Shown here one piece after another: positions 19,723 to 64,000 of a stretch of 64,000 nt of DNA. Within the stretch, counting starts at the first letter, position 1. Every line of letters starts with the position of its first letter. The DNA lies in contig CAZSFP010000002.1 in the NCBI GenBank assembly GCA_964606285.1, positions 43,890-107,889 of the forward strand. The letters are read 5' to 3'. The position numbers and the translations under genes were made by a program. The DNA comes from an uncultured Candidatus Saccharibacteria bacterium. GTDB taxonomy: Bacteria > Patescibacteriota > Minisyncoccia > Phycocordibacterales > UBA9973. The notes under the pieces were generated by a model. That model worked only from the letters and a program-made list of their open reading frames with translations. It made no database searches and had not been told where the DNA came from.

Positions 19723-20436
19723 ATGATTCTCCCTGTCTGGAAAAACATATATGAGACACCGCTTGCGTGTATCAATCGCACGAAGCTCTCACATCCTGAT
19801 CTTCTCGATCCGGTGACCTATGCCGGTCGGCTCGATCCCATGGCAGAAGGTGTTCTCTTGTTGCTCTCCGGTGATGATGTCCACAAGAAAGATGAATATC
19901 TTCATTTCGATAAAGAATATGAGATTGATGTTATTCTCGGACTTGCAACAGATACAGGAGATTTGCTCGGTTTACCAACTGTTGGAACTATACCGGATGA
20001 GAAAAATATCGAACAAACGATTCTTTCTTTTATCGGTATGTATGAACAATCATATCCATTATTCTCTTCTCGGACAGTTGCTGGAAAACAATTACACGAA
20101 TATGGTAGAGAGGGAACTGATGTTGCATTACCGTCTCATGCAGTAACAATACAAAATATTGAAATTATTTCTCGTGATCAAGTCTCACTTGTAGATCTCA
20201 CGGAACAAGCAATCAAAGCAACAGAAAATGTTACTGGTGATTTCCGACAATCTCAGATTGCAGGCGCGTGGAAAAATATAGAGAAAGAAGTATTATTCCC
20301 ACGTTACACGCTTCGAGTCACGTGTTCTTCAGGCACGTATATGCGTCAGTTAGCGATCGATATCGGCACACGTCTCGGTTCTATTGCGTGTACTTCTCGC
20401 ATTGTTCGCATACGAGTGGGGGAACATAGAATATAA
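19723..20436 (+). CDS. truB: tRNA pseudouridine(55) synthase TruB
   Basis: AGRLDPMAEGVLLL catalytic-Asp motif and TYMRQLAIDIG; 237 aa. Confidence 0.85.
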   Translation: MILPVWKNIYETPLACINRTKLSHPDLLDPVTYAGRLDPMAEGVLLLLSGDDVHKKDEYLHFDKEYEIDVILGLATDTGDLLGLPTVGTIPDEKNIEQTILSFIGMYEQSYPLFSSRTVAGKQLHEYGREGTDVALPSHAVTIQNIEIISRDQVSLVDLTEQAIKATENVTGDFRQSQIAGAWKNIEKEVLFPRYTLRVTCSSGTYMRQLAIDIGTRLGSIACTSRIVRIRVGEHRI

Positions 20437-20470: not shown

Positions 20471-20473
20471 TTG

Positions 20474-20857
20474 TGGAACTGGGCGGAATCGAACCGCCGT
20501 GCAATCATATTCTCAATACGAATCTCCGTGTGCAGATTCTTTCTTGTTTTAAATCATCTGTCTATGAAAGAAACAAAACAACAGACGATCGATCCCTGTG
20601 TTTCGGACGCTGTATCGGGAGGTACAACATTCCTATCATGAAATATGAAGCTCACTTTCTTCTATCATGAAATCAAAGAAGTGAACTGCTCGCGATTAAA
20701 CGCGGGCAAAAGCAAAGTTTGCCATACCGAAGTATGGAGACTTTACTCCTGAACGAAATGCGTTTGCATTTACGGTGTTGCAAGAAGTTTTGCGAGATTC
20801 CTGTGGACTCGACACGCACGCACTGAGGACACATGACTGTCTAGGCCTTTCAGTCCC
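20474..20857 (-). ncRNA. ssrA: tmRNA (ssrA), one-piece
   Basis: Minus-strand 5' end GGGACUG pairs with the 3' CAGUUCC. The 3' tRNA-like T-arm is GGCGGUUCGAUUCCGCC followed by CAGUUCC-A. The encoded tail is ACAA, so CCA is not fully encoded. The candidate tag ORF reads …GCA AAC UUU GCU UUU GCC CGC GUU UAA (ANFAFARV*). It lies immediately 3' of smpB. Confidence 0.75.
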
Positions 20858-20859
20858 AA

Positions 20860-21303
20860 TTATTTCAATTTCAATGTTCGCCGAATCTCACGATCGGTGT
20901 CTCGTTTTTTGATTGAGGCGCGCTTGTCATGTTTCTTTTTTCCCTTCATGAGCCCGAGCGCGATCTTGAGTTTCGCTCCTTTATTATACACTCGAAGTGG
21001 CACTAGTGTCAAACCCTTCTCATGGATGTCACGTTCGAGTACTTTGATTTCTTTTTTAGTAATAAGGAGTCGTCGTGTCCGGCGTGGATCATAATCGGTC
21101 GGTGTATTTTTTACCTGGTATGGCGGAATAAACATACCAATAATATAGAGCTCACCGCCACGAATGATGCTGTATGATCCTTCAAATGTTCCTTGTCCGT
21201 TTCGTAATGATTTCACTTCATGACCAAAAAGCTCGATCCCAACTTCGTAGGTTTCGATGATTTCATAATCAAATTTTGCTTTTCGGTGCTCGATCAATGC
21301 CAT
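20860..21303 (-). CDS. smpB: SsrA-binding protein SmpB
   Basis: 147 aa, …KAKFDYEIIETYEVGIELFGHEVKSLRNG… and a basic C-tail match the SmpB family. The stop codon is 2 nt from the tmRNA 5' end. Confidence 0.9.
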   Translation of the reverse strand: MALIEHRKAKFDYEIIETYEVGIELFGHEVKSLRNGQGTFEGSYSIIRGGELYIIGMFIPPYQVKNTPTDYDPRRTRRLLITKKEIKVLERDIHEKGLTLVPLRVYNKGAKLKIALGLMKGKKKHDKRASIKKRDTDREIRRTLKLK

Positions 21304-23259: not shown

Positions 23260-25188
23260 ATGGCATCACCATTTCCAAAGAACAAAAAGAATACCAATAA
23301 CGGTAAAGACAAGAACAAAAAGGAGGTCAAGGTCGTCCTTGGGCTCGGTAATATGATTACCGGCGTCATCCTCTTTTTTATTGTTCTATCCGCACTGTAT
23401 TCACTTATAGGTGAAAAGAAATCTCAAGTAACAGATGTCCCTATATCGACATTGGCAGGGGAAGTGATCAACGGCGAAATCAAGGCAATCAGTGTCTTGA
23501 ACGACAAAATCAAGATTGAACGCACAGATGGGGCACTCCAAGAATCAAAAAAAGAAACCGGTGCATCGCTTGTTGAAACCTTGACGAGTTATGGTGTGAC
23601 ACCAGTGCAACTCGCTGCTGTTGAAATATCAGTTGAAAATGAAAGCGGTATTGGTTACTGGATCGTATCACTCCTTCCAATCGTACTCCCGATACTTCTC
23701 ATTTTCGGATTCCTTTGGTTTCTTTCACGACAAATGAAAGGATCTGGCATGCAAGCATTTACCTTTGGTCAATCCAAGGCAAAACTGACTGATCCAAATG
23801 ACAAGAACAACCGAGTAACGTTTGCTGACGTTGCTGGCAATAAAGAAGCAAAGCAGGAATTGCTCGAGATTGTCGACTTTCTTCGTAATCCAAAAAAATT
23901 CCTCGACATCGGTGCGCAAATTCCAAAAGGCGTGATGCTTACAGGTGCACCGGGTACTGGTAAAACACTTCTTGCGCGCGCAGTCGCGGGGGAAGCGTCT
24001 GTACCATTCTTTCATCTCTCAGGTTCTGAATTTGTCGAAATGTTTGTCGGTGTCGGAGCATCACGTGTTCGTGATCTCTTCCAAATGGCAAAACGCGCAT
24101 CACCATCTATTGTCTTTATCGATGAAATCGATGCCGTCGGTCGTGTGCGTGGTACTGGTGTTGGCGGGGGCAATGATGAGCGCGAACAGACACTTAACCA
24201 GATTCTCGTCGAGATGGATGGCTTTGAACCAAATGAAAAAGTTATCGTTATCGCTGCGACAAACCGAAATGATGTCCTTGATCCAGCACTTCTTCGTCCG
24301 GGTCGATTTGATCGTCGGGTCATGCTCGATCTTCCAGATCTCGCTGATCGTGAAGAGATACTGAAAATTCATGCTCGCAAGAAACCATTTGCCGAAGATG
24401 TAAAGCTTCGTACGATTGCCGAACGAACTCCAGGATTCTCTGGTGCCGATCTCTATTCACTGATGAATGAAGGCGCGATTCTTGCTGCTCGTGAAAATCG
24501 CACAACAGTTGCACAAACCGATCTCATTCGATCTATCGAAAAAGTTATCATGGGTCCGGAACGATCAAGTCATCTCTTGTCTAAAAAAGAAAAAGAAATT
24601 ACCGCGTATCACGAAGCGGGGCATGCAATCGTTTCGTCAGTTTTGGAATACGCTGATCCTGTTCACAAAGTAACGATCATTTCTCGTGGTCGTGCAGCTG
24701 GATATACACTCAAGCTTCCACTCGAAGAAAAAAAACTACAGTCAAAAAATGAATTTCTTGATGATCTCGCTGTCTCGATGGGAGGTTATGCTGCAGAGCA
24801 ATTGATCTTTGGTGATATCACGACCGGACCGTCAAATGACTTGCAGGTTGCAACAGGGCTTGCGCGTGCCATGGTGACACGATGGGGTATGAGTGACGTT
24901 ATCGGTCCGATGGCACTTGAAAGCGATGGAGGACGAGCAATGTTTGGTGACGGAATCAATGACGATGTATTGTCGAAATCTTCTTCCGGAAAAATTAGCA
25001 GTGAGGTCAAAAAGATTCTCGACGAAGCACTTGTCCGTGCAAACAAGGTACTCGCTGATCATCGTGGCGCTTTTGATGCGATTGCAAAGAAATTGATCGA
25101 AGTAGAAACACTTGAACAAGCTGAGTACGAAGTCATTCTTCAAAAACACGGTATTGCACTCAAAAAACTCCCGGAAAATAAAGCATAA
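23260..25188 (+). CDS. ftsH: ATP-dependent zinc metalloprotease FtsH
   Basis: TM segments, AAA motifs ([18 protein letters not shown]…), an SRH motif, and the HEAGH zinc site. Confidence 0.95.
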
Positions 25189-25204: not shown

Positions 25205-25486
25205 ATGAATCAGACGCAGATAAAAAAGTTGGCAGCGCTCGCCCGCATAGAAATATCAGACGAAGAACTCGCGTCATTTTCTGCCGATCTCGGTGCGATA
25301 TTGGCGTATGTCGATCAGATTCGAGCGGTGACAGAAAAAGTCGGTGATGTTGCAGGCCAGGAAATGCTGGACAATGTTGCACGTGTCGATGTCGTCACTC
25401 GAACAACTGGTGAATACACTGATTCGATTTTATCGCTTGCACCTGATCGCGACGGAAACTATGTCAAAGTAAAAAAGATTTTATAA
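25205..25486 (+). CDS. gatC: Asp/Glu-tRNA(Asn/Gln) amidotransferase subunit C
   Basis: About 93 aa, …IKKLAALARIEISDEELASFSADLGAILAYVDQI… matches GatC. Start corrected to the ATG at 25205. Confidence 0.8.
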   Translation: MNQTQIKKLAALARIEISDEELASFSADLGAILAYVDQIRAVTEKVGDVAGQEMLDNVARVDVVTRTTGEYTDSILSLAPDRDGNYVKVKKIL

Positions 25487-25491
25487 TTTGT

Positions 25492-26931
25492 ATGACTACC
25501 ATCGATCTCAAAAATCTCACAATAGAAAAAGCACATGCGGCTCTCGTAGCGGGTGAGTATACCGTGCGTGATCTTGTCCGTGCGTATCAAACTGTCGCAA
25601 AAGAAAAAAACGGAGATATCAATGCATATCTCGAAATCTTTCGCGATGAAGTCATCGACGAGCAGATCGATCGCGCACAGGATATGTTCACTGTCGGCAC
25701 CGCAACTGCGCTTACCGGTATTCCTGTTGCCATCAAAGACAATATGCTCATGAAGGGTGAAATTTCCAGTGCGTCGTCAAAGATACTTGGTAATCATCAA
25801 GCGGTCTATGATGGTACGGTTATAAAAATTTTGAAAGATGCCGGTGCGGTTATTCTCGGCCGGACAAACATGGATGAATTTGCCATGGGGTCATCAACTG
25901 AAAACAGTGCGTATGGTCCGACAAAAAATCCTGTTGCATTTGATCGTGTACCAGGAGGATCATCCGGTGGTAGTGCAGCGGCGGTTGCTATGGATGGTGC
26001 GCTTATTTCATTTGGTTCAGATACCGGCGGATCGATCCGTCAACCAGCAGCATTTTGTGGACTTGTCGGACTCAAGACTTCATATGGTAGCGTGTCTCGA
26101 TCCGGATTGATCGCGATGGCATCATCTCTCGATCAGATCGGTCCGTTTACAAAAACTGTTAGTGAAGCAGAAACAATTTTCAATATGATAAGTACGTACG
26201 ATCCGCTTGATGGCACTTCTGTTCCAGTTGAAGTACGAGAAAAAATAAAAAATAATGCAAGTCCATTAAAAAAGAAAATTGGCGTGCCACGTGCATGGGT
26301 GGAGAGTGAAGGAATAGCAGAAAGTGTCAAAAAAAATTTTTCAGAAAATTTAAAAACATTGGAGGCGTGCGGCTATGAATTGGTTGATGTCGATATGTCG
26401 CTTGCCGAACACTCGCTCGCGGTCTATTACATCCTTATGCCAGCAGAAGTTTCGAGTAATCTTGCTTGTTTTGACGGTATTCGTTATGGACAAAGCAAGG
26501 ACGGGGTATCACTCCTTGATGTATATGAAAAAAGTCGTGCGCAAGGTTTCGGCAAGGAAACTCGGCGCCGTATTCTTCTCGGTACGTATATTCTCTCGCA
26601 TGGGTATTATGATGCATATTACGGCAATGCATGGCGTCTTCGCCGGGCAATTGAAAAAGAATTTGCAACGCTCTTTGAAACAGTGGATGCGATTGTTACA
26701 CCAACATCTCCGTTCCCGCCATTCAAACAAGGGGAGAAAACAGCAAACCCACTCGAAATGTATATGTCGGATCTTTTTACTGTTCCTGCAAACATCGCTG
26801 GTATTCCAGCAATCGCTATTCCGTCGGGGACTGATGCCGACGGACTACCAATGAGTATCCAGTTTATGGCACCGATGTTCCGTGAAGATATTCTCTTTTC
26901 CATAGGCAAGGATTTTGAACAGCGTGTATAA
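25492..26931 (+). CDS. gatA: Asp/Glu-tRNA(Asn/Gln) amidotransferase subunit A (amidase)
   Basis: 479 aa with the amidase signature GGSSGGSAAAVA and an S-cisS-K triad context. Confidence 0.9.
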   Translation: MTTIDLKNLTIEKAHAALVAGEYTVRDLVRAYQTVAKEKNGDINAYLEIFRDEVIDEQIDRAQDMFTVGTATALTGIPVAIKDNMLMKGEISSASSKILGNHQAVYDGTVIKILKDAGAVILGRTNMDEFAMGSSTENSAYGPTKNPVAFDRVPGGSSGGSAAAVAMDGALISFGSDTGGSIRQPAAFCGLVGLKTSYGSVSRSGLIAMASSLDQIGPFTKTVSEAETIFNMISTYDPLDGTSVPVEVREKIKNNASPLKKKIGVPRAWVESEGIAESVKKNFSENLKTLEACGYELVDVDMSLAEHSLAVYYILMPAEVSSNLACFDGIRYGQSKDGVSLLDVYEKSRAQGFGKETRRRILLGTYILSHGYYDAYYGNAWRLRRAIEKEFATLFETVDAIVTPTSPFPPFKQGEKTANPLEMYMSDLFTVPANIAGIPAIAIPSGTDADGLPMSIQFMAPMFREDILFSIGKDFEQRV

Positions 26932-26939
26932 TACGATAT

Positions 26940-27542
26940 ATGTCACAAATTCCTGATCAAATACAAAATATTCCTGATCCACAGTATTTCAATATCGAAT
27001 ACATTTTTTATAAAATAGCACATTTTTTCGTGGCGCTTGTCGGTGGTGATTTGTCATTCTCGTTATTTTTAGAAAATATTTGGAAAATAATTTCCATCAT
27101 CGTTGGACTCATTGCAGCAGTCTTTTTTGCAATACTTTTTTATTCATGGCTTCGGCACAAAGAGATCGAAGAACAGGAAGAAAAGAAATGGAAAGCACTG
27201 ATCATCGAAGACATGCCAGAAGCACCCACTGAGACGAAATGGGATATCATCGAAGCGCACAGTTATGGTGAAAGTCCGGCTGAATGGCGTCTTGCAATCA
27301 TCGAAGCCGATAGTATTCTCGATCAACTCCTGATCGCTCGCGGATTTGCTGGTGAGAATCTCGGTGAACGACTCAAAAACATTCCGACAGGAAAGCTCGG
27401 TACGATCAATGAAGCATGGGAAGCGCACAAGATCCGCAACCGCATCGCTCACGAAGGATCGAACTTTGCTTTGTCAAAACCCGAAGCTCGTCGCACCATC
27501 GAACGCTACCGCGCAGTATTCAAAGAATTGGGATATATTTAA
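26940..27542 (+). CDS. Membrane-anchored DUF4145/HEPN-like domain protein, in the position where gatB normally follows gatA
   Basis: There are 2 N-terminal TM helices. The C-terminal domain is …LIARGFAGENLGERLKNIPTGKLGTINEAWEAHKIRNRIAHEG…, with an Rx4H motif in a DUF4145-like context. Confidence 0.5.
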   Translation: MSQIPDQIQNIPDPQYFNIEYIFYKIAHFFVALVGGDLSFSLFLENIWKIISIIVGLIAAVFFAILFYSWLRHKEIEEQEEKKWKALIIEDMPEAPTETKWDIIEAHSYGESPAEWRLAIIEADSILDQLLIARGFAGENLGERLKNIPTGKLGTINEAWEAHKIRNRIAHEGSNFALSKPEARRTIERYRAVFKELGYI

Positions 27543-27549
27543 AATCAAA

Positions 27550-27580
27550 AAATCCCCACACGGTTGTGTTGGGGATTTTA
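27550..27580. terminator. Bidirectional terminator (AAAAATCCCCACACggttGTGTTGGGGATTTT)
   Basis: 10-bp stem with A/T-runs, between convergent genes. Confidence 0.65.
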
Positions 27581-28075
27581 GATTTCGAGCAAGCTGGGAT
27601 CTCGAGGTTCATAATAGGAAGGTTTACGAAGAGCCGTTTTGTCTTCATTGAAATAAACGCGACCAAAAAATGTTTCACCGTTGAGGATTTTTGAAACGAT
27701 TTCTTTGTCTGCAGGAAGCATTTTTCCATAAGGAACCATATCAAAAGCAAATTCTTTTGCGTCTTTCATTTCATTTGTGTCTTGGATGACGCCTGTAACT
27801 TCTTTTACAATATAGAAGGTCACATCAAAATCAGGGACGTCAGTATCATTGTTGACAAAGAAAAAATGAACGAGTGCTACCGGATGAATTTTGTCGGGAG
27901 AACACGTAGCCCCACCAGTTTCTTCGGTAAATTCTCTCGCAATATTTTTTCTGATTGTTTCTCCTGTTTCAACTTTACCTCCCCAGCCATTGTAGAGACC
28001 GGCGCCAATTTTTCGCTGTTTTATACCAAGTGTTATTTTGTATCCTTTGATCGGATAGACGACTGTTGCTTTCAT
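27578..28075 (-). CDS. NUDIX hydrolase
   Basis: Nudix box GWGGKVETGETIRKNIAREFTEETG; 165 aa. Confidence 0.8.
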   Translation of the reverse strand: MKATVVYPIKGYKITLGIKQRKIGAGLYNGWGGKVETGETIRKNIAREFTEETGGATCSPDKIHPVALVHFFFVNNDTDVPDFDVTFYIVKEVTGVIQDTNEMKDAKEFAFDMVPYGKMLPADKEIVSKILNGETFFGRVYFNEDKTALRKPSYYEPRDPSLLEI

Positions 28076-28143: not shown

Positions 28144-28189
28144 ATACCCCCACACTTACCTTTGAGAAAAGTAAGTGTGGGGGTATACT
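28144..28189 (+). promoter_or_regulatory. Perfect 16-bp-stem hairpin (ATACCCCCACACTTAC…GTAAGTGTGGGGGTAT) whose 3' arm ends in GGGGTATACT, 6 nt upstream of the pilD ATG. It is a compact relative of the CCCGTTAGA cassette arms, and the TATACT is positioned for a leaderless transcript.
   Basis: Inverted repeat at 28144-28159 and 28171-28186. TATACT at 28184-28189 and the ATG at 28196. Confidence 0.45.
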
Positions 28190-28195
28190 TTTTAT

Positions 28196-28993
28196 ATGAC
28201 ATCACTTATTTTGATCCTCTCGTTTGTATTTGGGGCGATTATCGGCAGTTTTCTCAATGTCGTGATCTATCGCATGAACACAGGTCGTTCCTGGGGTGGC
28301 CGATCGCACTGCATGCGCTGTAACAAGCAGCTCGCATGGTATGAATTGATTCCGATTGTCTCATGGCTCGCGCTCCGTGGTCGTTGTCGGTCATGTACGG
28401 CATCTATATCTCCGCAATATATTATCGTTGAGACTATTATGGGTGTTGTGACACTTCTTACTGTGTTAACATTTTTGCCATTGGCAACTATGTCTATAGG
28501 ATCATTCCTCTCACTCTCGCTAATCTACCTTCTCTTTTTCTCAGTACTTGCTGTCATTGCGTTTTATGATATTCGACACAAGGTCATTCCGCATGTACCA
28601 CTCATCCTTCTCGTTGTTGTTGCTGTCTGGATCAAATGTCTCGGTCCAAGTATTTTTCCACTCCAATTACCAGCGTTTGCAAGTTTTGTTCCGATACTGT
28701 TTGCGGTGCCGTTCTGGTTGTTGTCACGATTTTCTCGAGAGACACTCTTTGGTATGGGGGATGTAAAACTGATTGCAATACTCGCTTTTTTCCTCGGGTT
28801 ATGGAACGGATTCCTCATGATCGTTCTCGCATTTGTCATCGGTGCGGTCTACGGCATCGGTCTTGTTCTTTTGAAGAAAGCAGATAAAAAGACACAAGTT
28901 CCTTTCGCCCCATTCCTTATCCTCTCTACTATACTCATCTTCTTTGGGTTCATATCTTTCCCTATGATCTTTTCTCTGTTTTCGGTATACTAG
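28196..28993 (+). CDS. pilD: Prepilin peptidase (A24 family, PilD-like)
   Basis: N-terminal CxxC…CxxC zinc motif, DIRHKVIPH and GMGDVKL catalytic-Asp motifs, and multiple TM segments. Confidence 0.85.
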   Translation: MTSLILILSFVFGAIIGSFLNVVIYRMNTGRSWGGRSHCMRCNKQLAWYELIPIVSWLALRGRCRSCTASISPQYIIVETIMGVVTLLTVLTFLPLATMSIGSFLSLSLIYLLFFSVLAVIAFYDIRHKVIPHVPLILLVVVAVWIKCLGPSIFPLQLPAFASFVPILFAVPFWLLSRFSRETLFGMGDVKLIAILAFFLGLWNGFLMIVLAFVIGAVYGIGLVLLKKADKKTQVPFAPFLILSTILIFFGFISFPMIFSLFSVY

Positions 28994-28997
28994 ATAT

Positions 28998-29121
28998 ATG
29001 AATCCCGTTAGAAGTCACGATCACAATGGGACAATAATCATATGAAAATAAAAAATATTATCAATTTTAATCAAAAAGGAGATGCACGAACAATGATCGT
29101 GATCTACTTCTAACGGGATGA
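28998..29121. repeat. CCCGTTAGA inverted-repeat cassette, copy 2 (ATGAATCCCGTTAGAAGT … ACTTCTAACGGGATGA). The core carries an AAGGAG SD plus a 6-codon uORF (MIVIYF, 29093..29113) that stops 4 nt before the pilin ATG. The right arm contains that ATG.
   Basis: Arms are 14/14 complementary. The terminal motif is the same as copy 1, but the core sequence is different. Confidence 0.6.
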
Positions 29122-29723
29122 GGAAATCTTTTGATCGCGGTGTTACATTTATCGAACTGATCGTTGTCATCGCGATTTTTGGTATCATCGCTGGCATCAT
29201 TCTTTTCAATTACAGTGGATTTGATAGTAATATCAAATTGCAAAATACTATGAATGATATTGCGACAACTGTAAAATCAGCGCAGATTTCCGGCAGTTCT
29301 GGAAAATTTGATACACGGATGGCAGGGGCAATGGCTGCATATCGTCCAACATACGGTATTTATTTCAAGAATGATGCATTGGGAGGGTCTTTTACTTATT
29401 TTGTTGATACACCAAACAATGGCATCATCAACAACAATGCGTTTGATGCAACATTCAACGAAGATATAAAAATCATTGCGTTTCAAAACGGATTTAAAAT
29501 TAACAAGATTTGTTACGATCAAAAAACATTGTCAGTAAATACTAGTTGCGATACTTCCACGACAGCCGAAGCAACCGCTACTTTTACTCGTCCTGATTTG
29601 TTCGCGTATTTGCCGGACGGTATTGGTGGAAAGTATAATGATGTCAATATTACAGTCGAAGCACCGAACGGTATGATGAAGACATTGGTTATCTATGCGT
29701 CTGGTGCGATGTCTATCGAATAA
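29118..29723 (+). CDS. Type IV pilin-like protein (pseudopilin) 1
   Basis: N-terminal prepilin motif …RGVTFIELIVVIAIFGIIAGI…; 201 aa. Confidence 0.8.
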   Translation: MRKSFDRGVTFIELIVVIAIFGIIAGIILFNYSGFDSNIKLQNTMNDIATTVKSAQISGSSGKFDTRMAGAMAAYRPTYGIYFKNDALGGSFTYFVDTPNNGIINNNAFDATFNEDIKIIAFQNGFKINKICYDQKTLSVNTSCDTSTTAEATATFTRPDLFAYLPDGIGGKYNDVNITVEAPNGMMKTLVIYASGAMSIE

Positions 29724-29724
29724 T

Positions 29725-30339
29725 ATGAAAAAAACTATTTCACACAATAAAGGGTTCACACTTGTTGAGATAATGATCGCAACTGGACTGTTTGTTGTTG
29801 TTGTCACAATCGGTATCACAGCAGTGCTCAATATTAATCGTGGTCACAAAAAGACACAAGCATTTCGAACGGCATTTGATAATCTGTCGTTTATCATGGA
29901 AGACATATCTCGCAATGTACGCCTGGGATCAAATATTCATTGTACAGATTTCAATACTGCGTATACACAAATAATTTTATCCATTCCGGCACCGACATCA
30001 TGCGCGGGTGGCAATAGTGCCATCATTTTTACACCACCCAAAAAAGATCCGGCTGCGATCGGAGATTTGTCTGTGTATGCAATCGATACAAATACCGTTG
30101 CTGATTCTGCGGTTCGACTCTATCATTCAATAGATGGCGGTGCGACGTTTAGTGCAGTAACACCAGGCGATATCACCATAGATCCTGCAAAATCCGGTTT
30201 CATGGTTCTCAATGTAGGACAGGGCGAAGCCGGTCAAGCTCGTGTGACGATTCGCTTGGCAGGCATTGTCACATATCGCGATATTACGACACCGTTTGAT
30301 TTGCAGACAACAGTGTCAGCGAGATTGCTCGATCAATAA
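29725..30339 (+). CDS. Type IV pilin-like protein (pseudopilin) 2
   Basis: MKKTISHNKGFTLVEIMIATGLFVVVV… is a class III signal sequence. Start corrected to 29725. Confidence 0.8.
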   Translation: MKKTISHNKGFTLVEIMIATGLFVVVVTIGITAVLNINRGHKKTQAFRTAFDNLSFIMEDISRNVRLGSNIHCTDFNTAYTQIILSIPAPTSCAGGNSAIIFTPPKKDPAAIGDLSVYAIDTNTVADSAVRLYHSIDGGATFSAVTPGDITIDPAKSGFMVLNVGQGEAGQARVTIRLAGIVTYRDITTPFDLQTTVSARLLDQ

Positions 30340-30340
30340 T

Positions 30341-31081
30341 ATGAAAAAAACTATTTTACATAACAAAGGATTCACGCTTATCGAGACACTCGTCGCATTG
30401 TCTATTTTTTCATTGTCCATTGTCGCTCTCATTGTCGCGGCAGGGCAGGGAGTATCGAATTTTCAGACGATCAAGGCACGATTGACTGCGTCCTATCTCG
30501 CCCAAGAAGGTGTTGAACTTGTCCACAATATCCGTGATACAGAAATGGAAACCGGGTCATGGGCTTCATTTATAGGCACATCATCTCCTGTTGCTAATTG
30601 TTTTTTAAATCAAAATCCGAATGGCTGTACTATCGATGCTGTATATGCACCACAAAACATAGACGTACAAGCTTGCACGTCTTCTGTATGTCCGTTTATG
30701 AAATATGACCAGTTTGTCGGCTACAATCATTCACCAACATATCCAACAAATACTGTTTTTAGACGAACTATAGCATTGACTCTTCTTCCATTGAACAATG
30801 AAGTCGAAGTGAAAAGTACGGTGAGTTATACTATAGGCGGCACGACATCACAGATAGTGATGAGTGAAATTCTTACGAATTGGATAGGAAATATTTCTTC
30901 ATCTCCATCGAGTAATCCATCGCCGCAAACAACCGGTTCACAATCTCCTTCAAATACATCACCAAGTAGTTCATCTCCATCTCAACAAACAACAGGGTCG
31001 CAAAATATGTCACAATCACCACAACAGCAAGTACAACAGGGTCAACCACCGTCATCCAATATGATCTCAACAACACCATAA
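30341..31081 (+). CDS. Type IV pilin-like protein (pseudopilin) 3 with S/P/Q-rich C-terminus
   Basis: MKKTILHNKGFTLIETLVALSIFSL… prepilin motif. Start corrected to 30341. Confidence 0.8.
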   Translation: MKKTILHNKGFTLIETLVALSIFSLSIVALIVAAGQGVSNFQTIKARLTASYLAQEGVELVHNIRDTEMETGSWASFIGTSSPVANCFLNQNPNGCTIDAVYAPQNIDVQACTSSVCPFMKYDQFVGYNHSPTYPTNTVFRRTIALTLLPLNNEVEVKSTVSYTIGGTTSQIVMSEILTNWIGNISSSPSSNPSPQTTGSQSPSNTSPSSSSPSQQTTGSQNMSQSPQQQVQQGQPPSSNMISTTP

Positions 31082-31082
31082 T

Positions 31083-33625
<2,543 letters not shown>

Positions 33626-50325: not shown

Positions 50326-52305
50326 ATGAAGCAAGACACTATTACTTATTTTGCAGAAACGGATTATCGTAACAAACGAACGCGTTTTGGTATCAAAGCG
50401 TCTGATCGGTCTCGTCATATGTATGTCATCGGAAAGACGGGTATGGGTAAATCGACTCTTTTGGAAAATATGGCCATTCAGGACATTCAGAATGGTGAAG
50501 GTATGGCGTTTATCGATCCGCACGGTGGCACCGTCGAAAAACTCCTCGATTATATTCCTGAGCATCGCATCCAAGACGTTGTTTATTTCGCACCGTTCGA
50601 TCTCGAATATCCGATGGCGTTCAATGTCATGGAAAATATCGGTGCTGACAAACGACACCTTGTTGCTTCAGGTCTCATGAGTACATTCAAAAAAATCTGG
50701 GTGGATGCATGGAGCGCCCGCATGGAATACATATTGAACAATACGATTCTTGCGTTGCTTGAATATCCGGAAGCGACCCTCATGGGTGTCAACAAAATGC
50801 TCTCGGATAAAGAATTTCGAAAAACTGTTCTCGAGCACGTGACTGACCCGTCAGTCAAATCTTTTTGGATAGATGAATTTGCGAAATATACCGAACGTAT
50901 GGCGCAAGAGGCTGTGCCTGCGATTCAAAACAAGATTGGTCAGTTTACTGCCAATCCACTCATTCGAAATATTATTTCCCAGCCGACATCATCATTTGAT
51001 ATTCGTGACATGATGGACAAGAAAAAAATACTTCTCATTAACTTGTCCAAGGGCCGGATCGGCGAACAAAACGCTGCACTCCTCGGTGGTATGCTTATCA
51101 CAAAGATTTATCTCGCAGCAATGTCGCGTGCTGATATATCTGCATCGACCCTTGAATCTTTGCCGTCATTTTATTTCTTTGTTGATGAATTCCAGTCTTT
51201 TGCCAGTGATAGTTTTGCGGATATTCTTTCTGAGGCCAGAAAATACAAGCTTGCGATGACGATTACTCACCAGTACGTCGAACAAATGGGAGACGAAGTC
51301 AAGGCGGCGGTGTTCGGTAACGTCGGTACCATGGTGATTTTCCGTGTAGGTTCGACTGATGCGGATATTTTTGAAAAAGAATTTGCCCCTGTGTTTACTG
51401 CTGAAGACATCGTAAATCTCGACAAACGGCAGATTTATCTCCGTCTCATGATTGATGGTGTCGGATCAAAACCATTTTCTGCCGTCACGTTGCCGCCGAT
51501 CCAGATCGCAGGTGGTGTATCGTTTCGTGAACAGGTTATTGCAGCATCACGACAACAATATACGACTGATCGAAAGATTGTTGAAGATAAAATCAAAATT
51601 TGGATTGAAGCGGGTCGCGATACAACTGAGAAGAAGCCTAAAAAGCCGTACGATCCTTCCTATGTGCCGAAATCGTATCAAGGTCAGCAAGGGACACAGT
51701 ATCAATCTCAGTCTCCATCGCAATCATCATATCAACAGCCACAGACACAACCATACAAAAAACCATTTGCGCCACGACCGTCTGGTCCGTCGCCGAAACT
51801 ACATGATCTTCTGCAAAAACTTGAAGCAGGAGATATTGTGCCAGTTGAAGATATACAGCCGGTAGTACAAAAAGAAATTGTAAAACCAGTCATTCCTCCG
51901 CCGCCGGTAGTCAATAAAATTCCAGCCGCGGAAGCAAAATCTCACTTCACTGAAGTTCGTCTACCGGACGGACAAGTTTCTCGGGATAAAGAAGAAAAAA
52001 ATATTTCGCACGCACCACATGGGTCACTTCGAGATGCTCCACTCAAACCACAAGGCCTCGCGCCAAAAATGGCGGCAAAAGTTACCGGCAAGAACAATGA
52101 TGTCTTGAAACAAGCACTTGCCCGAGCGCTTGAAAAAAAGGTCCTCCAACCAGCAGAAACGGTTTCATCGCAAGAATCAGTTGTATCAGCATCAAGTGCT
52201 GTTCCAGAAAAAAAAGAAGAACCTGTGCTACAGTCTCCACAGCAACAGTCACCACAAAAGAAACGAGAAGTACCTGAAGATGTATTGCGACGAATTCTTG
52301 AATAA
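50326..52305 (+). CDS. TraD/VirD4-like (T4SS coupling-protein family) ATPase, paralog 2, with Q/P-rich C-terminal low-complexity tail
   Basis: HMYVIGKTGMGKSTLLENMAIQDIQNGEGMAFIDPHG, ILLINLSKGRIGE, FFVDEFQSF and SEARKYKLAMTITHQY are collinear with the C-terminal half of ORF 12413..15136. Confidence 0.7.
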   Translation: MKQDTITYFAETDYRNKRTRFGIKASDRSRHMYVIGKTGMGKSTLLENMAIQDIQNGEGMAFIDPHGGTVEKLLDYIPEHRIQDVVYFAPFDLEYPMAFNVMENIGADKRHLVASGLMSTFKKIWVDAWSARMEYILNNTILALLEYPEATLMGVNKMLSDKEFRKTVLEHVTDPSVKSFWIDEFAKYTERMAQEAVPAIQNKIGQFTANPLIRNIISQPTSSFDIRDMMDKKKILLINLSKGRIGEQNAALLGGMLITKIYLAAMSRADISASTLESLPSFYFFVDEFQSFASDSFADILSEARKYKLAMTITHQYVEQMGDEVKAAVFGNVGTMVIFRVGSTDADIFEKEFAPVFTAEDIVNLDKRQIYLRLMIDGVGSKPFSAVTLPPIQIAGGVSFREQVIAASRQQYTTDRKIVEDKIKIWIEAGRDTTEKKPKKPYDPSYVPKSYQGQQGTQYQSQSPSQSSYQQPQTQPYKKPFAPRPSGPSPKLHDLLQKLEAGDIVPVEDIQPVVQKEIVKPVIPPPPVVNKIPAAEAKSHFTEVRLPDGQVSRDKEEKNISHAPHGSLRDAPLKPQGLAPKMAAKVTGKNNDVLKQALARALEKKVLQPAETVSSQESVVSASSAVPEKKEEPVLQSPQQQSPQKKREVPEDVLRRILE

Positions 52306-52316
52306 AATAAACTCGT

Positions 52317-53699
52317 ATGAAAAAGATTTTCCTTCTCAGTCTATCTTTTATATCAGTTCATGCTTGTCATGCTTCGGTCATGTTTTCTGAAATCATGTAT
52401 GATCTCGATGGTACTGATACGGATCGTGAATGGGTAGAAATTTATAACGGAGGATCTGACAGCATTGATCTGTCTACTTGGAAATTTTTTGAAGGAAATA
52501 CAAATCACAGTCTCGTTCCTGTAGACGGTAGTGGAACACTTGCTGCAAATACGTATGCAGTTATCGCTGATAAACCAGATACTTTTCGAATTGACTGGCC
52601 GAATTATTCTGGACTGTTGTTTGATTCAAGTTTTTCTCTAACTAATGATCCGGGTGAGACATTGTCACTCAAGGACGCAAGTCTTGCCGTTATTGATACG
52701 ATAACATATACGAATACCAGTGGTGCTCAAGGTGACGGAAATTCCTTGCAGAAAATGAACAGTATTTTGATATCAGCAGCACCTACTCCAGGTGCAGTAA
52801 ATAGTGCTGGTGATTCAGGGGGAGGTGATTCATCACTGGCTGATAGTAGTGGATCTATAGCACCTGCTCCCAAAATCATAGAATCGACAGTCTCTAAAAT
52901 ACAAACTGATATCATCGTACCGCAGACGATTTTTTCCGGCATTTCATTTCAATGTAAAACAAAAACAATCGGTTTTGCATCTGAGAATAGAAATCACGGT
53001 TCGTGGATATGGTCATTTGGTGATGGAAACGCAATTGAGCAAAAAACAAATGATCCATTTTCTTGTATGTATGAATATCCTGGGACATATGTGATGACAC
53101 TTGCGTATAGAACAAATCCATATCTTCCGGAACCCGATGCGACGGACCGTGTTCTTGTTACGGTGGTTGCACCAGATTTGGTTATTTCATCACTGTTGCC
53201 TGACGGGGGAGTAGTACTCAAAAATATGTCGTCGAAAGAAATCGATGTTTCAGGTTGGAAAATAACACGAGGTGCAACAGTGTTTGTATTTCCATCAACA
53301 ACTATTTTTCTTCCAAACAAAGAACTGACTATTAGTCAAAAACATTCTCATCTCTCAACTGATATTCCTGTAACACTTTTCAATCCCGCTGGTGATAGTA
53401 TTTCGATATTTCCCACACCTGTTGTCTCGAAATTTTCTTCAGGTGTTTCATCTACTGTTCGTACTACTTCTCCATCGTCTTCGAGAGTATATACACCTAT
53501 TGCACCAGAAACAGCAGAGAAAAAAGACGGTGCATTGCTCGCGAGTGTCGCAGCTGTACCGGCTGCAAAAAAACCCTGGAAAGCAGTTTTACCGTTTGCT
53601 GGATTTGCGCTTGTCTCTGGTCTCGGTGGTTATACGTGGTGGCGGTACTCAAGACCTCCAAAGGTGGAAGATGAGGATGACTATGAAATAGTTGAATAA
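52317..53699 (+). CDS. Secreted, C-terminally membrane-anchored protein with lamin-tail-domain (LTD)-like repeats
   Basis: Signal peptide. FSEIMYDLDGTDTDREWVEIYNGGSDSIDLSTWKF resembles the LTD motif (SEI…EWIEL.N…DLSGW). A second LTD-like block is …KNMSSKEIDVSGWKITRG…. C-terminal TM is VLPFAGFALVSGLGGYTWW. Confidence 0.5.
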   Translation: MKKIFLLSLSFISVHACHASVMFSEIMYDLDGTDTDREWVEIYNGGSDSIDLSTWKFFEGNTNHSLVPVDGSGTLAANTYAVIADKPDTFRIDWPNYSGLLFDSSFSLTNDPGETLSLKDASLAVIDTITYTNTSGAQGDGNSLQKMNSILISAAPTPGAVNSAGDSGGGDSSLADSSGSIAPAPKIIESTVSKIQTDIIVPQTIFSGISFQCKTKTIGFASENRNHGSWIWSFGDGNAIEQKTNDPFSCMYEYPGTYVMTLAYRTNPYLPEPDATDRVLVTVVAPDLVISSLLPDGGVVLKNMSSKEIDVSGWKITRGATVFVFPSTTIFLPNKELTISQKHSHLSTDIPVTLFNPAGDSISIFPTPVVSKFSSGVSSTVRTTSPSSSRVYTPIAPETAEKKDGALLASVAAVPAAKKPWKAVLPFAGFALVSGLGGYTWWRYSRPPKVEDEDDYEIVE

Positions 53700-61360: not shown

Positions 61361-61436
61361 TCCTCGGTAGCTCAGTTGGTAGAGCGCCTCCCTGTTAAGG
61401 AGGATGTCCTAGGTTCGAGCCCTAGCCGAGGAGCCA
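61361..61436 (+). tRNA. tRNA-Asn (anticodon GTT), CCA encoded
   Basis: Acceptor TCCTCGG/CCGAGGA, D-arm GCTCAGTTGGTAGAGC, anticodon stem-loop CCTCC-CTGTTAA-GGAGG, T-arm GGTTCGAGCCC, discriminator G, then CCA. Confidence 0.9.
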
Positions 61437-62936
61437 GTTAGGACTACTAGCTAGTTCTAGTACTAAATTGAACGGAGAAGCTATTGAAAAATATAGCTTT
61501 TTTCCGTTTACAGTCGGGTTCTGAAGTATATAGTTCAAAAATGCTCTTTTCTCAGCAGGTTCAGAACTATTCTCAAAAATGGTCTTTGCTCTGCGTGCTA
61601 CAGAAATGACTGTAGCAACGGTTGTTTGGTAGTCGTAATCAGCTTTTCTGTGTTCAGAAAGTTCAATTTCCAGTGTCTGCATTTTGTCCTGATACTCTTG
61701 ATGCTTTTTGTCATAGATGTCCTTAGTAATACTCTGGTCTAAGAATGCTTCAAGAAGTCGATCAGTTTTTCCTTTAACATTGTCGTAGTCAGTTCTTATA
61801 CGATTTATTTGTGCTTTATGAAAAACAACTTCTGCTTCAGTGTTCTTTCGTAGTTCGTCAACAAGACCATTCTGAGTTTCCTCAGTGATACTCTCAAATC
61901 GCTCCAAGACCTCATAAATGGGCTTCAGAAGCTCTAGTTCGTTCACATAGACCCTTTCACATATCTTCTTGGAATTGGTACAAGAACCGATTACATACTG
62001 CTTACCACTGGGCTTTAGCTTATGCTCAAATGAGATGGCACATCCGCAGTTATGACACTTCAAAAGTCCTTTGAATATAAAGTCCTTGGAATGTGCCTTA
62101 GAGGGCATTTTCTTGCGTTTTGAGCGTATTTCTTGGCACTTATCGAAGAGTTCCCTTGAAATCAATCGGGGATACTTATGAGCATAAGAGCCATACTTCT
62201 TTGACATAGCAACACCACAGTAAAAACTATCCTTGAGTATATTTTCTATACAACTTTTTGACAGCTTAAAGCCCTTGATACTTCTTAGTCCAAGTTCTGT
62301 CATTTCTATTCGTATGGTTTCAAGTGAGTGATTTCCTGTTGCATAAAGCTCAAACATTTTTGTAATAAGATGACCTCTTTCAGGGTCAATAATGATGTCC
62401 TTACGCAGTCGCTTTTCAGCGTCTAGTTGAACATTCAGATAACCCAAACGAACAGCTCCTGTCCATTCGCCATTTCTTCGCTTTTGTTCAAATGCTCGTC
62501 TTACATTGTCGCCAATCGCATCAGAATAGTATTTAGCCAAACCCAAGCTCATACCAAACTGGAACTTTTCTACAGCCGACATCTGGCTGTTTATGATTTG
62601 ACCCTCTGAAACGAAATGAAGCTCAATTTTGTCAGCTACGGCAAGTTCATAAAGCCGAGCAACTCGTTTATCAAAAACACTTCTTGAAAGACGGTCTACC
62701 TTATCAAAGCAGACCGCAATCTTTTCTTTCTTCATTACTCCTTCAACAAACTCAAGAAGTTTATCGAACTCATCTCGCTTTTCTTTGTAGGCACTTTCAT
62801 CAAAGCTATACGACTTTACGACGTCAAAAGATTTCTTAGAACAGTAACTTCTAATACGCTCTGTCTGAGCAGGTAAAGAGTTACCAGCTTCCTTTTGTTC
62901 TTCAGTTGATACTCGTGATACGTCTATAGCTTTCAT
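61422..62936 (-). mobile_element. Large serine recombinase (resolvase domain, recombinase domain and zinc ribbon). Its 3' end overlaps the tRNA-Asn 3' end, so it is the probable integrase of an island integrated at tRNA-Asn.
   Basis: IDVSRVSTEEQ catalytic Ser and DKVDRLSRS. The recombinase domain is followed by a Cys cluster (CHNCGCA…CTNSKKIC). 504 aa. GC is about 38 % with AGA/TTA codon usage, unlike the core genes. Confidence 0.85.
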
Positions 62937-62939
62937 AGG

Positions 62940-64000
62940 TTATAAATCGTACGAAGTTTTTAGTCGCTTTTCTTTATTGTGTCGTTCAATAGCAAGTTGA
63001 ATTAACTTATCAATTAACTCTGTATACGATATACCGCTAGCTTCCCATAATTTTGGATACATACTAATTTTAGTAAATCCTGGAATGGTGTTTACCTCAT
63101 TGATAATCACTTCTTTACCGTCACGCAAAAACATATCTACTCTAGCCATACCTTCAAGACAAAGGGCTTTAAAAGCTTTGATTGCAACTTGTTGTACTTC
63201 TTCCATTAATTCAGCGGGTAGTTTTGCAGGTATTTCTAATAGAGCACCATTTTCGTCAATATATTTTGCTTGGTAAGAATAAAATTCGTGATTAGGAATA
63301 ATTCTACCTGCGACTGAAGCAATAGGGTTTTCGTTTCCCAGGATAGAACATTCGACTTCATCGCCAACTATTGCTTCTTCTACCAAGATTTTATTGTCGT
63401 ATTCAAATGCTATTTTTATGGCTGTTTCTAACTCTTCTTTAGTATTTGCTTTACTTACACCCACTGAAGAACCTAAGTTAGCGGGCTTTGTAAAAATAGG
63501 CAAACCTAACTGTTCAATTATTTTATCTAAATCAATATCAGAAGAAGTGTCTAAACATATAAAGTCCGCTATAGGCACTCCTGCACCTTTAAGAAGTCGC
63601 TTCATTACATCTTTGTCCATACCAACCGCAGAACCTAACACTCCTGCCCCAACGAATGGTACATCTAAAAGCTTTAGTAATCCCTGAACTGTACCGTCCT
63701 CACCAAATGGTCCGTGCAAAACTGGAAATGCGACATCAATTGGTTTCTCAGGCACATCATTAGATAGCGTAACTAGTTGCTGGCTTGATTGACCTGGAAC
63801 TAAAGCTACTTCTTTACTATTTTCCTTATTTAGTTTTATTAACTTTGGGTTATTGTCGTTAAGCAGGTACTGAGACGCAGTATTGAGTTGCCACTTTCCC
63901 GTCTTATCAATCCCAATTGGAACTATTTCATACTTGTCCTTATCAATTGCATCAATGATATTTTTAGCAGATTGAAGTGAAACTTCGTGTTCTGCCGACT
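62940..64000 (-). CDS. ddl: D-alanine--D-alanine ligase (N-terminus beyond window end), low-GC and island-like
   Basis: …[41 protein letters not shown]…. The reading frame stays open upstream of the ORF-track start (GTG at 63753), through …[39 protein letters not shown]… to the window edge. Confidence 0.85.
   Translation of the reverse strand, partial: [352 protein letters not shown]

Follow-up and report, generated by a model that had tools for sequence, protein, structure and literature searches.

A predicted membrane-tethered HEPN-fold protein family linked to gatC and gatA in Paceibacteria

To our knowledge, bacterial HEPN RNases have been described almost exclusively in defence systems or as toxins. 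tRNA is among the substrates of HEPN enzymes: the anticodon nucleases PrrC and RloC cut it. In HEPN domains generally, an Rx4-6H motif ends core helix 3, with a polar residue (N, D or H) after the arginine, and an acidic residue lies in helix 2; domains that keep Rx4-6H are predicted RNases, and non-catalytic ones usually lack the motif (PMC3710099). The conserved histidine is essential in the HEPN RNases PrrC and RloC, as is the arginine in PrrC, and in the circularly permuted KEN domain the polar residue that follows the arginine aids catalysis (PMC3710099). Proteins that combine transmembrane (TM) segments with a HEPN domain are already known from comparative genomics as predicted membrane RNases: Anantharaman et al. 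(2013; PMC3710099) described a TM-HEPN group of the Abi2/Swt1 family and a DUF4145 group with a 'WP' TM helix, recorded fusions of DUF4145 to 'TM and SH3' in Firmicutes, and discussed three membrane-associated HEPN groups as stimulus-dependent RNases. The gene analysed here, called X, encodes a protein of similar layout at the end of a gatC-gatA operon. A literature search returned no description of its family or of a link between HEPN and gat genes; a family that spans the Paceibacteria, behaves as a core gene and stays linked to gatCAB appears to be undescribed.

The window (the whole stretch of DNA that was analysed, 64 kb) contains one copy of X, in the following surroundings.

23260-25188, FtsH gene, upstream of gatC
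25205..25486, + strand, gatC (TIGR00135 equivalog at 53.9 bits, cutoff 47.1; Pfam GatC)
25492..26931, + strand, gatA, encoding the glutaminase subunit of GatCAB (TIGR00132 equivalog at 528.4 bits, cutoff 481.1)
26940..27542, + strand, X, 200-aa ORF for a predicted membrane-tethered HEPN-fold protein
27542..27590, no strand assigned, hairpin and U-rich tail separating X from the convergent NUDIX gene, a probable bidirectional intrinsic terminator
28175..33625, + strand, prepilin peptidase, pilin-like genes and ligA, here downstream of X (Pfam and NCBIfam)

The gatA product also matches Pfam Amidase (1e-132). The gatA stop (26931) is separated from the ATG of X (26940) by 8 nt, and the RNA of 27542..27590 folds at -19.8 kcal/mol (z -3.44), a stability reached by 0 of 200 shuffles. 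Because of this short gap and the hairpin that precedes the convergent NUDIX gene, gatC-gatA-X probably forms one transcription unit ending at the terminator after X, in agreement with an earlier sequence-only reading of this DNA, which had placed the ORF directly after gatC-gatA and expected co-transcription. A consensus scan for promoters and terminators performed at chance level and missed the hairpin after X, the stem of which has a 1-nt bulge; an Rfam search found no regulatory RNA near gatC-gatA-X. A TATAAT lies at 26927-26932, from which a leaderless mRNA beginning at the ATG of X might arise.

Within the protein, alignment, hydropathy and an AF2 model (mean pLDDT 85) delimit the following parts.

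26940..27077, + strand, N-terminal segment, residues 1-46, predicted extracytoplasmic (alignment, hydropathy)
27078..27152, + strand, transmembrane helix, residues 47-71 (Kyte-Doolittle 19-residue mean up to 2.86)
27231..27539, + strand, predicted HEPN-fold domain, residues 98-200 (helices 100-108 and 113-133, insert 141-147, helices 156-175 and 180-197)
27303..27311, + strand, E122-A123-D124 in the second core helix
27426..27452, + strand, H163-K-I-R166-N167-R-I-A-H171, the R-N-x3-H (Rx4H) catalytic-type motif with an upstream His

Two TM helices had been proposed from the sequence. The helix at residues 47-71 is clear and sits inside a long modelled helix, 38-87; the other candidate, at residues ~25-39, is a weakly hydrophobic helix that peaks at 1.78 and is poorly conserved, so that a single-pass topology is the better description. 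The N-terminal segment carries an FNIEY-type motif, [LIFV]N[LIVF][EDQ][YFW], in 172 of 258 family members. Family-wide, the flanks of the main TM helix contain a mean of 3.2 K+R on the C-terminal side versus 0.86 on the N-terminal side; from this excess, the positive-inside rule predicts that the HEPN domain is cytoplasmic.

In the model, the first hairpin consists of helices 100-108 and 113-133, with E122 and D124 in the latter; an insert with the short helix 141-147 separates the core helices; the third core helix, 156-175, ends with R-N-x3-H, at the position of the HEPN active site; and helix 180-197 closes the bundle. X thus has the four-helix up-down bundle, with an insert between core helices 2 and 3, that characterizes HEPN proteins. 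Foldseek comparison of the whole model, TM helix included, with the PDB gave nothing significant; its top matches were the HEPN proteins MtlR, 1wty, HepS and AbiV, and the structural neighbours of X include HepT toxins, AbiV, AbiA and HepS, with sacsin HEPN, Csx1 and Csm6 ranked lower. A profile search of the PDB with X likewise returned nothing significant, and a weak profile alignment sets the R and H of X onto the 'RNKVAH' motif of Csm6. We conclude with high confidence that the C-terminal domain of X has the HEPN fold, as had been proposed from its sequence.

The Rx4H arrangement read earlier from the sequence is confirmed: R166-x4-H171, encoded at 27435-27452, lies within EAWEAHKIRNRIAHEG, residues 158-173 of X. 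Checking of the motif across relatives shows that D124, H163, R166, N167 and H171 are invariant in 258/258 family sequences, and that W116, E122 (251/258), G138 and W160 are nearly so. By helix position, E122 and D124 fit the conserved acidic site of HEPN helix 2, in a form other than the typical Ex3[KR]. Homologues of the Nealsonbacteria type have EAE at this site and R-Q-x3-H as the motif, with Q in place of N after the arginine.

That R, N and H are invariant together with an acidic position and another His points to catalysis more than to a surface for binding, and on sequence grounds X is with moderate confidence predicted to be active as a nuclease. Several considerations count against this: some HEPN domains are non-catalytic binders; the Nealsonbacteria-type homologues have Q after the arginine; and no regulator of X was identified, while an unregulated constitutive RNase would be harmful. 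X might instead be a non-catalytic HEPN protein that binds a ligand, RNA or protein, for example to tether GatCAB, the transamidosome or tRNA to the membrane, or a nucleotide-binding regulator; its tight operon linkage with GatCA(B) would suit a structural partner, and no cognate inhibitor of a nuclease is visible nearby. However, such domains typically lose Rx4-6H (PMC3710099) and X keeps the whole set of residues in every family sequence, so that we consider a purely binding role unlikely.

Assignment to a named family is less straightforward. X of the window reaches no Pfam, NCBIfam or PADLOC threshold and matches neither PF13643 (DUF4145) nor any HEPN model even at E<=10. Weak matches to T4SS_pilin (0.025), a Mbov_0395 pilin-like model (0.0095) and CARF_2M (0.0031) fall on the TM region and were set aside as compositional, reflecting a hydrophobic helix; the last of these, to a CARF-2TM model, is the only PADLOC signal. 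Across the family, the weak Pfam signal is confined to HEPN families, all below gathering thresholds. A domain-only scan of 39 member sequences gave the following matches.

HEPN_Swt1 (PF18731): 24/39 members, best E 3.4e-4, sub-threshold
DUF4145 (PF13643): 5/39 members, best E 1.9e-3, sub-threshold
RiboL-PSP-HEPN: 5/39 members, best E 2.7e-3, sub-threshold
Hypoth_Ymh: 4/39 members, best E 1.5e-2, sub-threshold
pEK499_p136: 3/39 members, best E 2.3e-3, sub-threshold
Cthe2314: 2/39 members, best E 4.5e-2, sub-threshold
Apea: 1/39 members, best E 3.4e-2, sub-threshold

The HEPN_Swt1 scores are ~12 bits against a gathering threshold of 27.5 bits, and a full-length scan matched DUF4145 in 2/27 members (best E 3.1e-3). 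Membership in DUF4145, which the sequence-only reading had proposed, is therefore not borne out: sub-threshold hits to that model are fewer than those to HEPN_Swt1, and the window protein has none. We conclude that X belongs to the HEPN superfamily (Pfam clan CL0291) as a new family that has neither a name nor a model and that keeps the active-site signature intact. Its members are annotated at source as 'hypothetical protein' or 'protein of unknown function with transmembrane region', and none carries a precomputed Pfam domain; since current libraries leave all members unannotated, the family merits a profile model of its own.

The family is large. A word-indexed search found 744 homologues of X, and an exhaustive search found 2,392 clusters (50% identity, E<=1e-3), 1,312 of them at E<=1e-10; when one genome per species was scanned, at least 591 species had a relative of X. 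All named species that carry it are of the Paceibacteria/Parcubacteria type (Campbell-, Kaiser- and Nomurabacteria, Paceibacterota). Comparison of the window with a 90%-identical relative of the same gene order (L094) gives approximate dN/dS values, with dS near saturation, of 0.042 for X, 0.054 for gatA, 0.036 for ftsH and 0.058 for ligA, showing that X is under strong purifying selection. X occurs in at least 591 species, at 35-50% identity, and its chromosomal position is fixed; this indicates that it is a vertically inherited, lineage-specific core gene of Paceibacteria (Parcubacteria).

This distribution bears directly on the earlier proposal that X may be a minimal Abi-type toxin tethered to the membrane, whether its role were in abortive infection or that of the toxin in a toxin-antitoxin system. 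Many HEPN families (DUF4145, AbiD/F, AbiV, HepT) are indeed defence or toxin nucleases, HepT toxins, AbiV, AbiA and HepS are structural neighbours of X, and a few members match DUF4145 weakly. Against these resemblances stand the breadth and fixity of the family (the locus is fixed in 80/80 species sampled), a dN/dS of ~0.04, the single copy in the window, and a PADLOC result that extends no further than the TM region. Among the conserved neighbours of X there are no antitoxin, MNT, restriction-modification or other defence genes. The Abi-type reading is accordingly unlikely, and we assign it a very small probability.

Gene order was compared in 83 fetched X loci, 80 of which represent one locus per species. 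X adjoins gat genes in 82/82 distinct relative loci, and gatA lies directly upstream on the same strand in 81/83 loci, or 78/80 species; an arrangement that looked odd in a single sequence is thus the rule in the species sampled from this lineage. The estimated gap from gatA stop to X start has a median of ~23 nt and is <=55 nt in 63/77 loci, and a gene of the gatC family lies upstream of gatA in 72/84 sequences (the 83 loci and the window). Two loci depart from this pattern: in one (L006), X and gatA are convergent neighbours; in the other (L047), a gatB, its product identified as GatB by Pfam, lies between gatA and X (ligA-gatC-gatA-gatB-X). In Nealsonbacteria (L091) and Wildermuthbacteria (L092), where the order is gatC-gatA-(aspS)-gatB, a homologue of X (169-170 aa; family HMM E 1e-27 to 1e-34) lies 59-62 nt upstream of gatC and is divergent from it. 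When an alignment of this Nealson type served as the seed of a metagenome scan, the patterns chosen were poor and one locus was found. Complete genomes that carry gatCA-X include CP011215.1 (Campbellbacteria, 752,630 bp) and OY969413.1 (Kaiserbacteria, 993,452 bp). The other gatCAB loci retrieved (L084-L090, L096) lack X.

The conserved block that ORF clustering reveals upstream of X ends in ligA, gatC and gatA; before these come prepilin peptidase, pilin-like genes and two more conserved ORFs, of which one is pilin-like and the other matches no family. Downstream of X, gene families are common to at most 17/83 loci. The conserved neighbours are hence gatA, gatC, ligA and pilin genes beside a variable downstream side, rather than the restriction or abortive-infection loci typical of DUF4145. 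In most relatives the segment from prepilin peptidase to ligA lies directly upstream of gatC; in the window and in its 90%-identical relative it lies downstream of X, and the gatC-gatA-X unit is intact despite this relocation.

These gene orders also bear on the possibility that X is a general membrane-associated nuclease of RNA decay or processing, an analogue of RNase Y, whose position beside gatCA is merely inherited. Such a role would agree with constraint on X at the level of housekeeping genes and with the place of X, which closes a long run of conserved but functionally unrelated genes (prepilin peptidase, pilins, ligA, gatC, gatA, X); ligA-gatC adjacency is also conserved in these loci, and gene order can be conserved without a functional link. 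Yet the linkage to gat genes persists whether X follows gatA in tandem, follows gatB in tandem or diverges from gatC, and it survives the relocation of the ligA block, which goes beyond passive inheritance. Adjacency in all three arrangements favours selection for keeping X beside the gat genes over descent alone, and an RNA-decay nuclease that is beside gatCA by descent alone has, in our estimate, a low probability.

The earlier reading had placed X in the slot where gatB would be expected. A tblastn search with GatB and a Pfam scan of the ten larger ORFs found no gatB in the 64-kb window, as the sequence-only reading had stated, and there is none within 10 kb of X in the 82 fetched loci other than L047. 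That exception, in which gatB and X occur in tandem, shows that X does not substitute for gatB. GatB queries from L047 and from Nealsonbacteria and Wildermuthbacteria, used to seek the gene elsewhere as had been recommended, retrieved only classical gatCAB lineages and did not locate gatB of the gatCA-X genomes. We know of no described role for GatC other than within the GatCAB complex; because GatA and GatC score as true equivalogs and both evolve under purifying selection, we infer that gatB is encoded elsewhere in these genomes.

Longer members of the family offer a clue to what the extracytoplasmic part of X may do. Sequences of >=260 aa make up 16 of the 258, and those inspected (P0187 with 696 aa, P0200, P0201, P0225, P0237 and ORFs in L073 and L030) have a basic N-terminus, a TM helix, one or several repeats, a second TM helix and then the HEPN domain. 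The repeats are of the type 'G..YW.VDFESGPDGWV', with a sub-threshold match to SH3_3 (E 2.6e-4), so that in some homologues the N-terminal part of X is replaced or extended by an extra TM helix and SH3b-like repeats. Interpretation of the 696-aa protein as a GatA-X fusion was rejected, its N-terminus being the TM helix and repeats. To judge by its sequence, this layout suggests a sensor-like protein with a module outside the cell and a predicted RNase inside. The N-terminal TM helix and ectodomain of these long variants are in keeping with the topology predicted for X.

Taken together, these observations suggest the following working model. The single TM helix would anchor X in the cytoplasmic membrane, with the short N-terminus outside and the HEPN domain inside; like other HEPN proteins that keep the motif, which usually work as dimers sharing a composite active site, X would probably dimerize and act as a metal-independent endoribonuclease at the inner face of the membrane. 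Its extracytoplasmic part may gate the RNase as in Ire1, as suggested by the TM-(SH3b-like repeats)-TM arrangement that precedes the same domain in some homologues. The conserved link to GatCAB suggests that its substrate or regulatory logic might concern tRNA-dependent amidation, speculatively tRNA(Gln)/tRNA(Asn) or the gat transcript. We consider the chances about even that X serves as a housekeeping HEPN endoribonuclease that is tethered to the membrane, linked to the GatCAB pathway and possibly responsive to a signal; that it is functionally tied to the amidation pathway or its tRNAs is, taken by itself, a tentative proposal to which we give somewhat less than even weight. The most specific version, an Ire1-like one-component transmembrane RNase whose ectodomain (minimal in the window protein, SH3b-like repeats in other Paceibacteria) senses the envelope or the host-cell surface and whose HEPN domain cuts tRNA(Gln)/tRNA(Asn) or the gat transcript, is improbable; were it true, the supply of amide aminoacyl-tRNAs, and hence translation, would be coupled to the episymbiotic state of these ultra-small bacteria.

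In place of a defence or toxin module, the X family behaves like a core gene across a whole class of the Candidate Phyla Radiation, tied to the essential tRNA-amidation operon and sometimes equipped with a putative surface-sensing ectodomain. If active, X would add an RNase specific to this lineage, with a housekeeping or regulatory role, to the very reduced RNA-metabolism toolkits of these organisms. Parcubacteria have many conserved membrane proteins annotated as 'hypothetical', and X would then offer a concrete way to test the function of one of them.

Comparison with known systems places X near several of them. With HepT/HEPN toxins (5yep_B, 7ae2_A, 8xdj_A) and AF0298/TTHA0636-type proteins it shares a similar domain size and a motif in the penultimate helix, but sequence identity is 7-12%; those proteins are soluble, MNT-paired and patchily distributed, whereas X is membrane-anchored, core-like and without an MNT neighbour. 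With DUF4145 it shares the HEPN fold, an R..N...H-type motif followed by Gly, and TM/SH3 fusions, which are occasional in DUF4145; unlike DUF4145, X has no association with restriction-modification, McrBC, helicase or Abi genes. The tRNA cut by PrrC and RloC would, by analogy, be the class of substrate that the gat linkage suggests for X, although PrrC and RloC are large, ATPase-fused defence proteins linked to restriction systems.

The KEN domain of Ire1 and RNase L has the same R-N-x3-H active-site motif (PMC3710099), and Ire1 crosses the membrane once, its sensor lying outside and its RNase inside, a plan that the long variants of X match; X has no kinase domain and no detectable sequence relationship to Ire1 or RNase L, so that the analogy is one of mechanism only. 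X also resembles the membrane HEPN groups of Anantharaman et al.: one or more TM segments followed by a predicted cytoplasmic HEPN domain with Rx4H, SH3b-like extracytoplasmic repeats in some members, weak HMM signal in the Swt1/DUF4145 region, and the same proposed logic of stimulus-dependent RNA cleavage at the membrane. In contrast to their WP group, WP upstream of the HEPN domain occurs incidentally in 12/258 X members and is absent from the window protein. X also differs from these groups in that no known model matches its family above threshold, and in that it is limited to Paceibacteria, where it is a core gene in the gat operon rather than a component of a defence or mobile context.

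Local rearrangement moved the ligA block in the window and in its close relative L094 and kept gatC, gatA and X, the gene for the membrane-tethered HEPN-fold protein, together as a whole. In most relatives (the window was compared with loci L004-L083) the prepilin peptidase gene, the pilin-like genes and ligA form a block 5' of gatC; in the window (28175-33625) and L094 this block is placed downstream of X, beyond a convergent NUDIX gene, and the gene before gatC is FtsH in its stead. The X locus on one Logan contig (L097:1616-2603) encodes a protein identical to that of the window, yet a 586-aa plus-strand gene begins 13 nt past X and no convergent NUDIX gene is present there; thus, the downstream neighbour varies even among very close strains.

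A promoter-like site (TAGGCA, 18 nt, TATAAT; 10/12 matches) is found at 26903-26932, within the 3' end of gatA, and ends 8 nt ahead of the start codon of X. A transcript begun at this site would be essentially leaderless; promoter-like sites in this region occur at chance level (9 found, against 10.8 expected by chance), and X lacks a visible Shine-Dalgarno sequence.

The following genes lie upstream of X in the window:
16448-17830, plus strand: beta-CASP metallo-beta-lactamase RNase (RNase J/CPSF-like; Lactamase_B, Beta-Casp and RMMBL domains)
19723-20436: truB
20471-20857, minus strand: full-length tmRNA gene (Rfam RF00023, 114 bits)
20860-21303, minus strand: 147-aa ORF, next after the tmRNA gene
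The RNase gene, 9 kb upstream of X, bears on the RNase repertoire of this reduced genome. The tmRNA gene is placed just past truB, and the ORF that follows equals in length the SmpB gene found after truB in L094.

Farther along the window are:
50326-52305: TrwB/TraG-like type IV coupling protein
52317-53699: protein with lamin-tail and PKD domains, next after the coupling protein
61361-61433, plus strand: tRNA gene, within region 61361-63755
61422-62936, minus strand: large serine recombinase (Resolvase, Recombinase and Zn_ribbon_recom domains)
The coupling protein and the lamin-tail/PKD protein, with the recombinase beyond them, hint at a conjugative or DNA-uptake-related island. The tRNA gene overlaps the 3' end of the recombinase gene by 12 nt, and an integrated element may have one of its borders here.

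Among relatives, Nealsonbacteria and Wildermuthbacteria have X proteins of a divergent subfamily (169-170 aa, with EAE and R-Q-x3-H replacing EAD and R-N-x3-H):
L091:2281-2790, minus strand: X homologue, Nealsonbacteria
L092:3717-4229, minus strand: X homologue, Wildermuthbacteria
At both loci gatC-gatA-(aspS)-gatB runs opposite in direction to X, with just 59-62 nt between start codons, and X and the gat genes may therefore share a bidirectional promoter region. In the high-GC Paceibacteria-type MAG contig CAYZWA010000005.1 (L047), the order is gatC-gatA-gatB-X. The GatA encoded there shares only 36% identity with that of the window, versus 49-63% for other X-lineage GatA proteins, and the nearest relatives of its GatB belong to classical gatCAB operons; this locus has either retained the ancestral operon or had its gatAB genes replaced.

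Long variants of X also occur, two of them directly 3' of gatA:
L073:9051-10394: long X family member
L030:1140-2018: long X family member
These and further long members (P0187, P0200, P0201, P0225, P0237) carry an N-terminal TM helix, 1-7 repeats and another TM helix, in this order, ahead of the HEPN domain; the repeats resemble bacterial SH3 domains, with a sub-threshold match to SH3_3 (E 2.6e-4).
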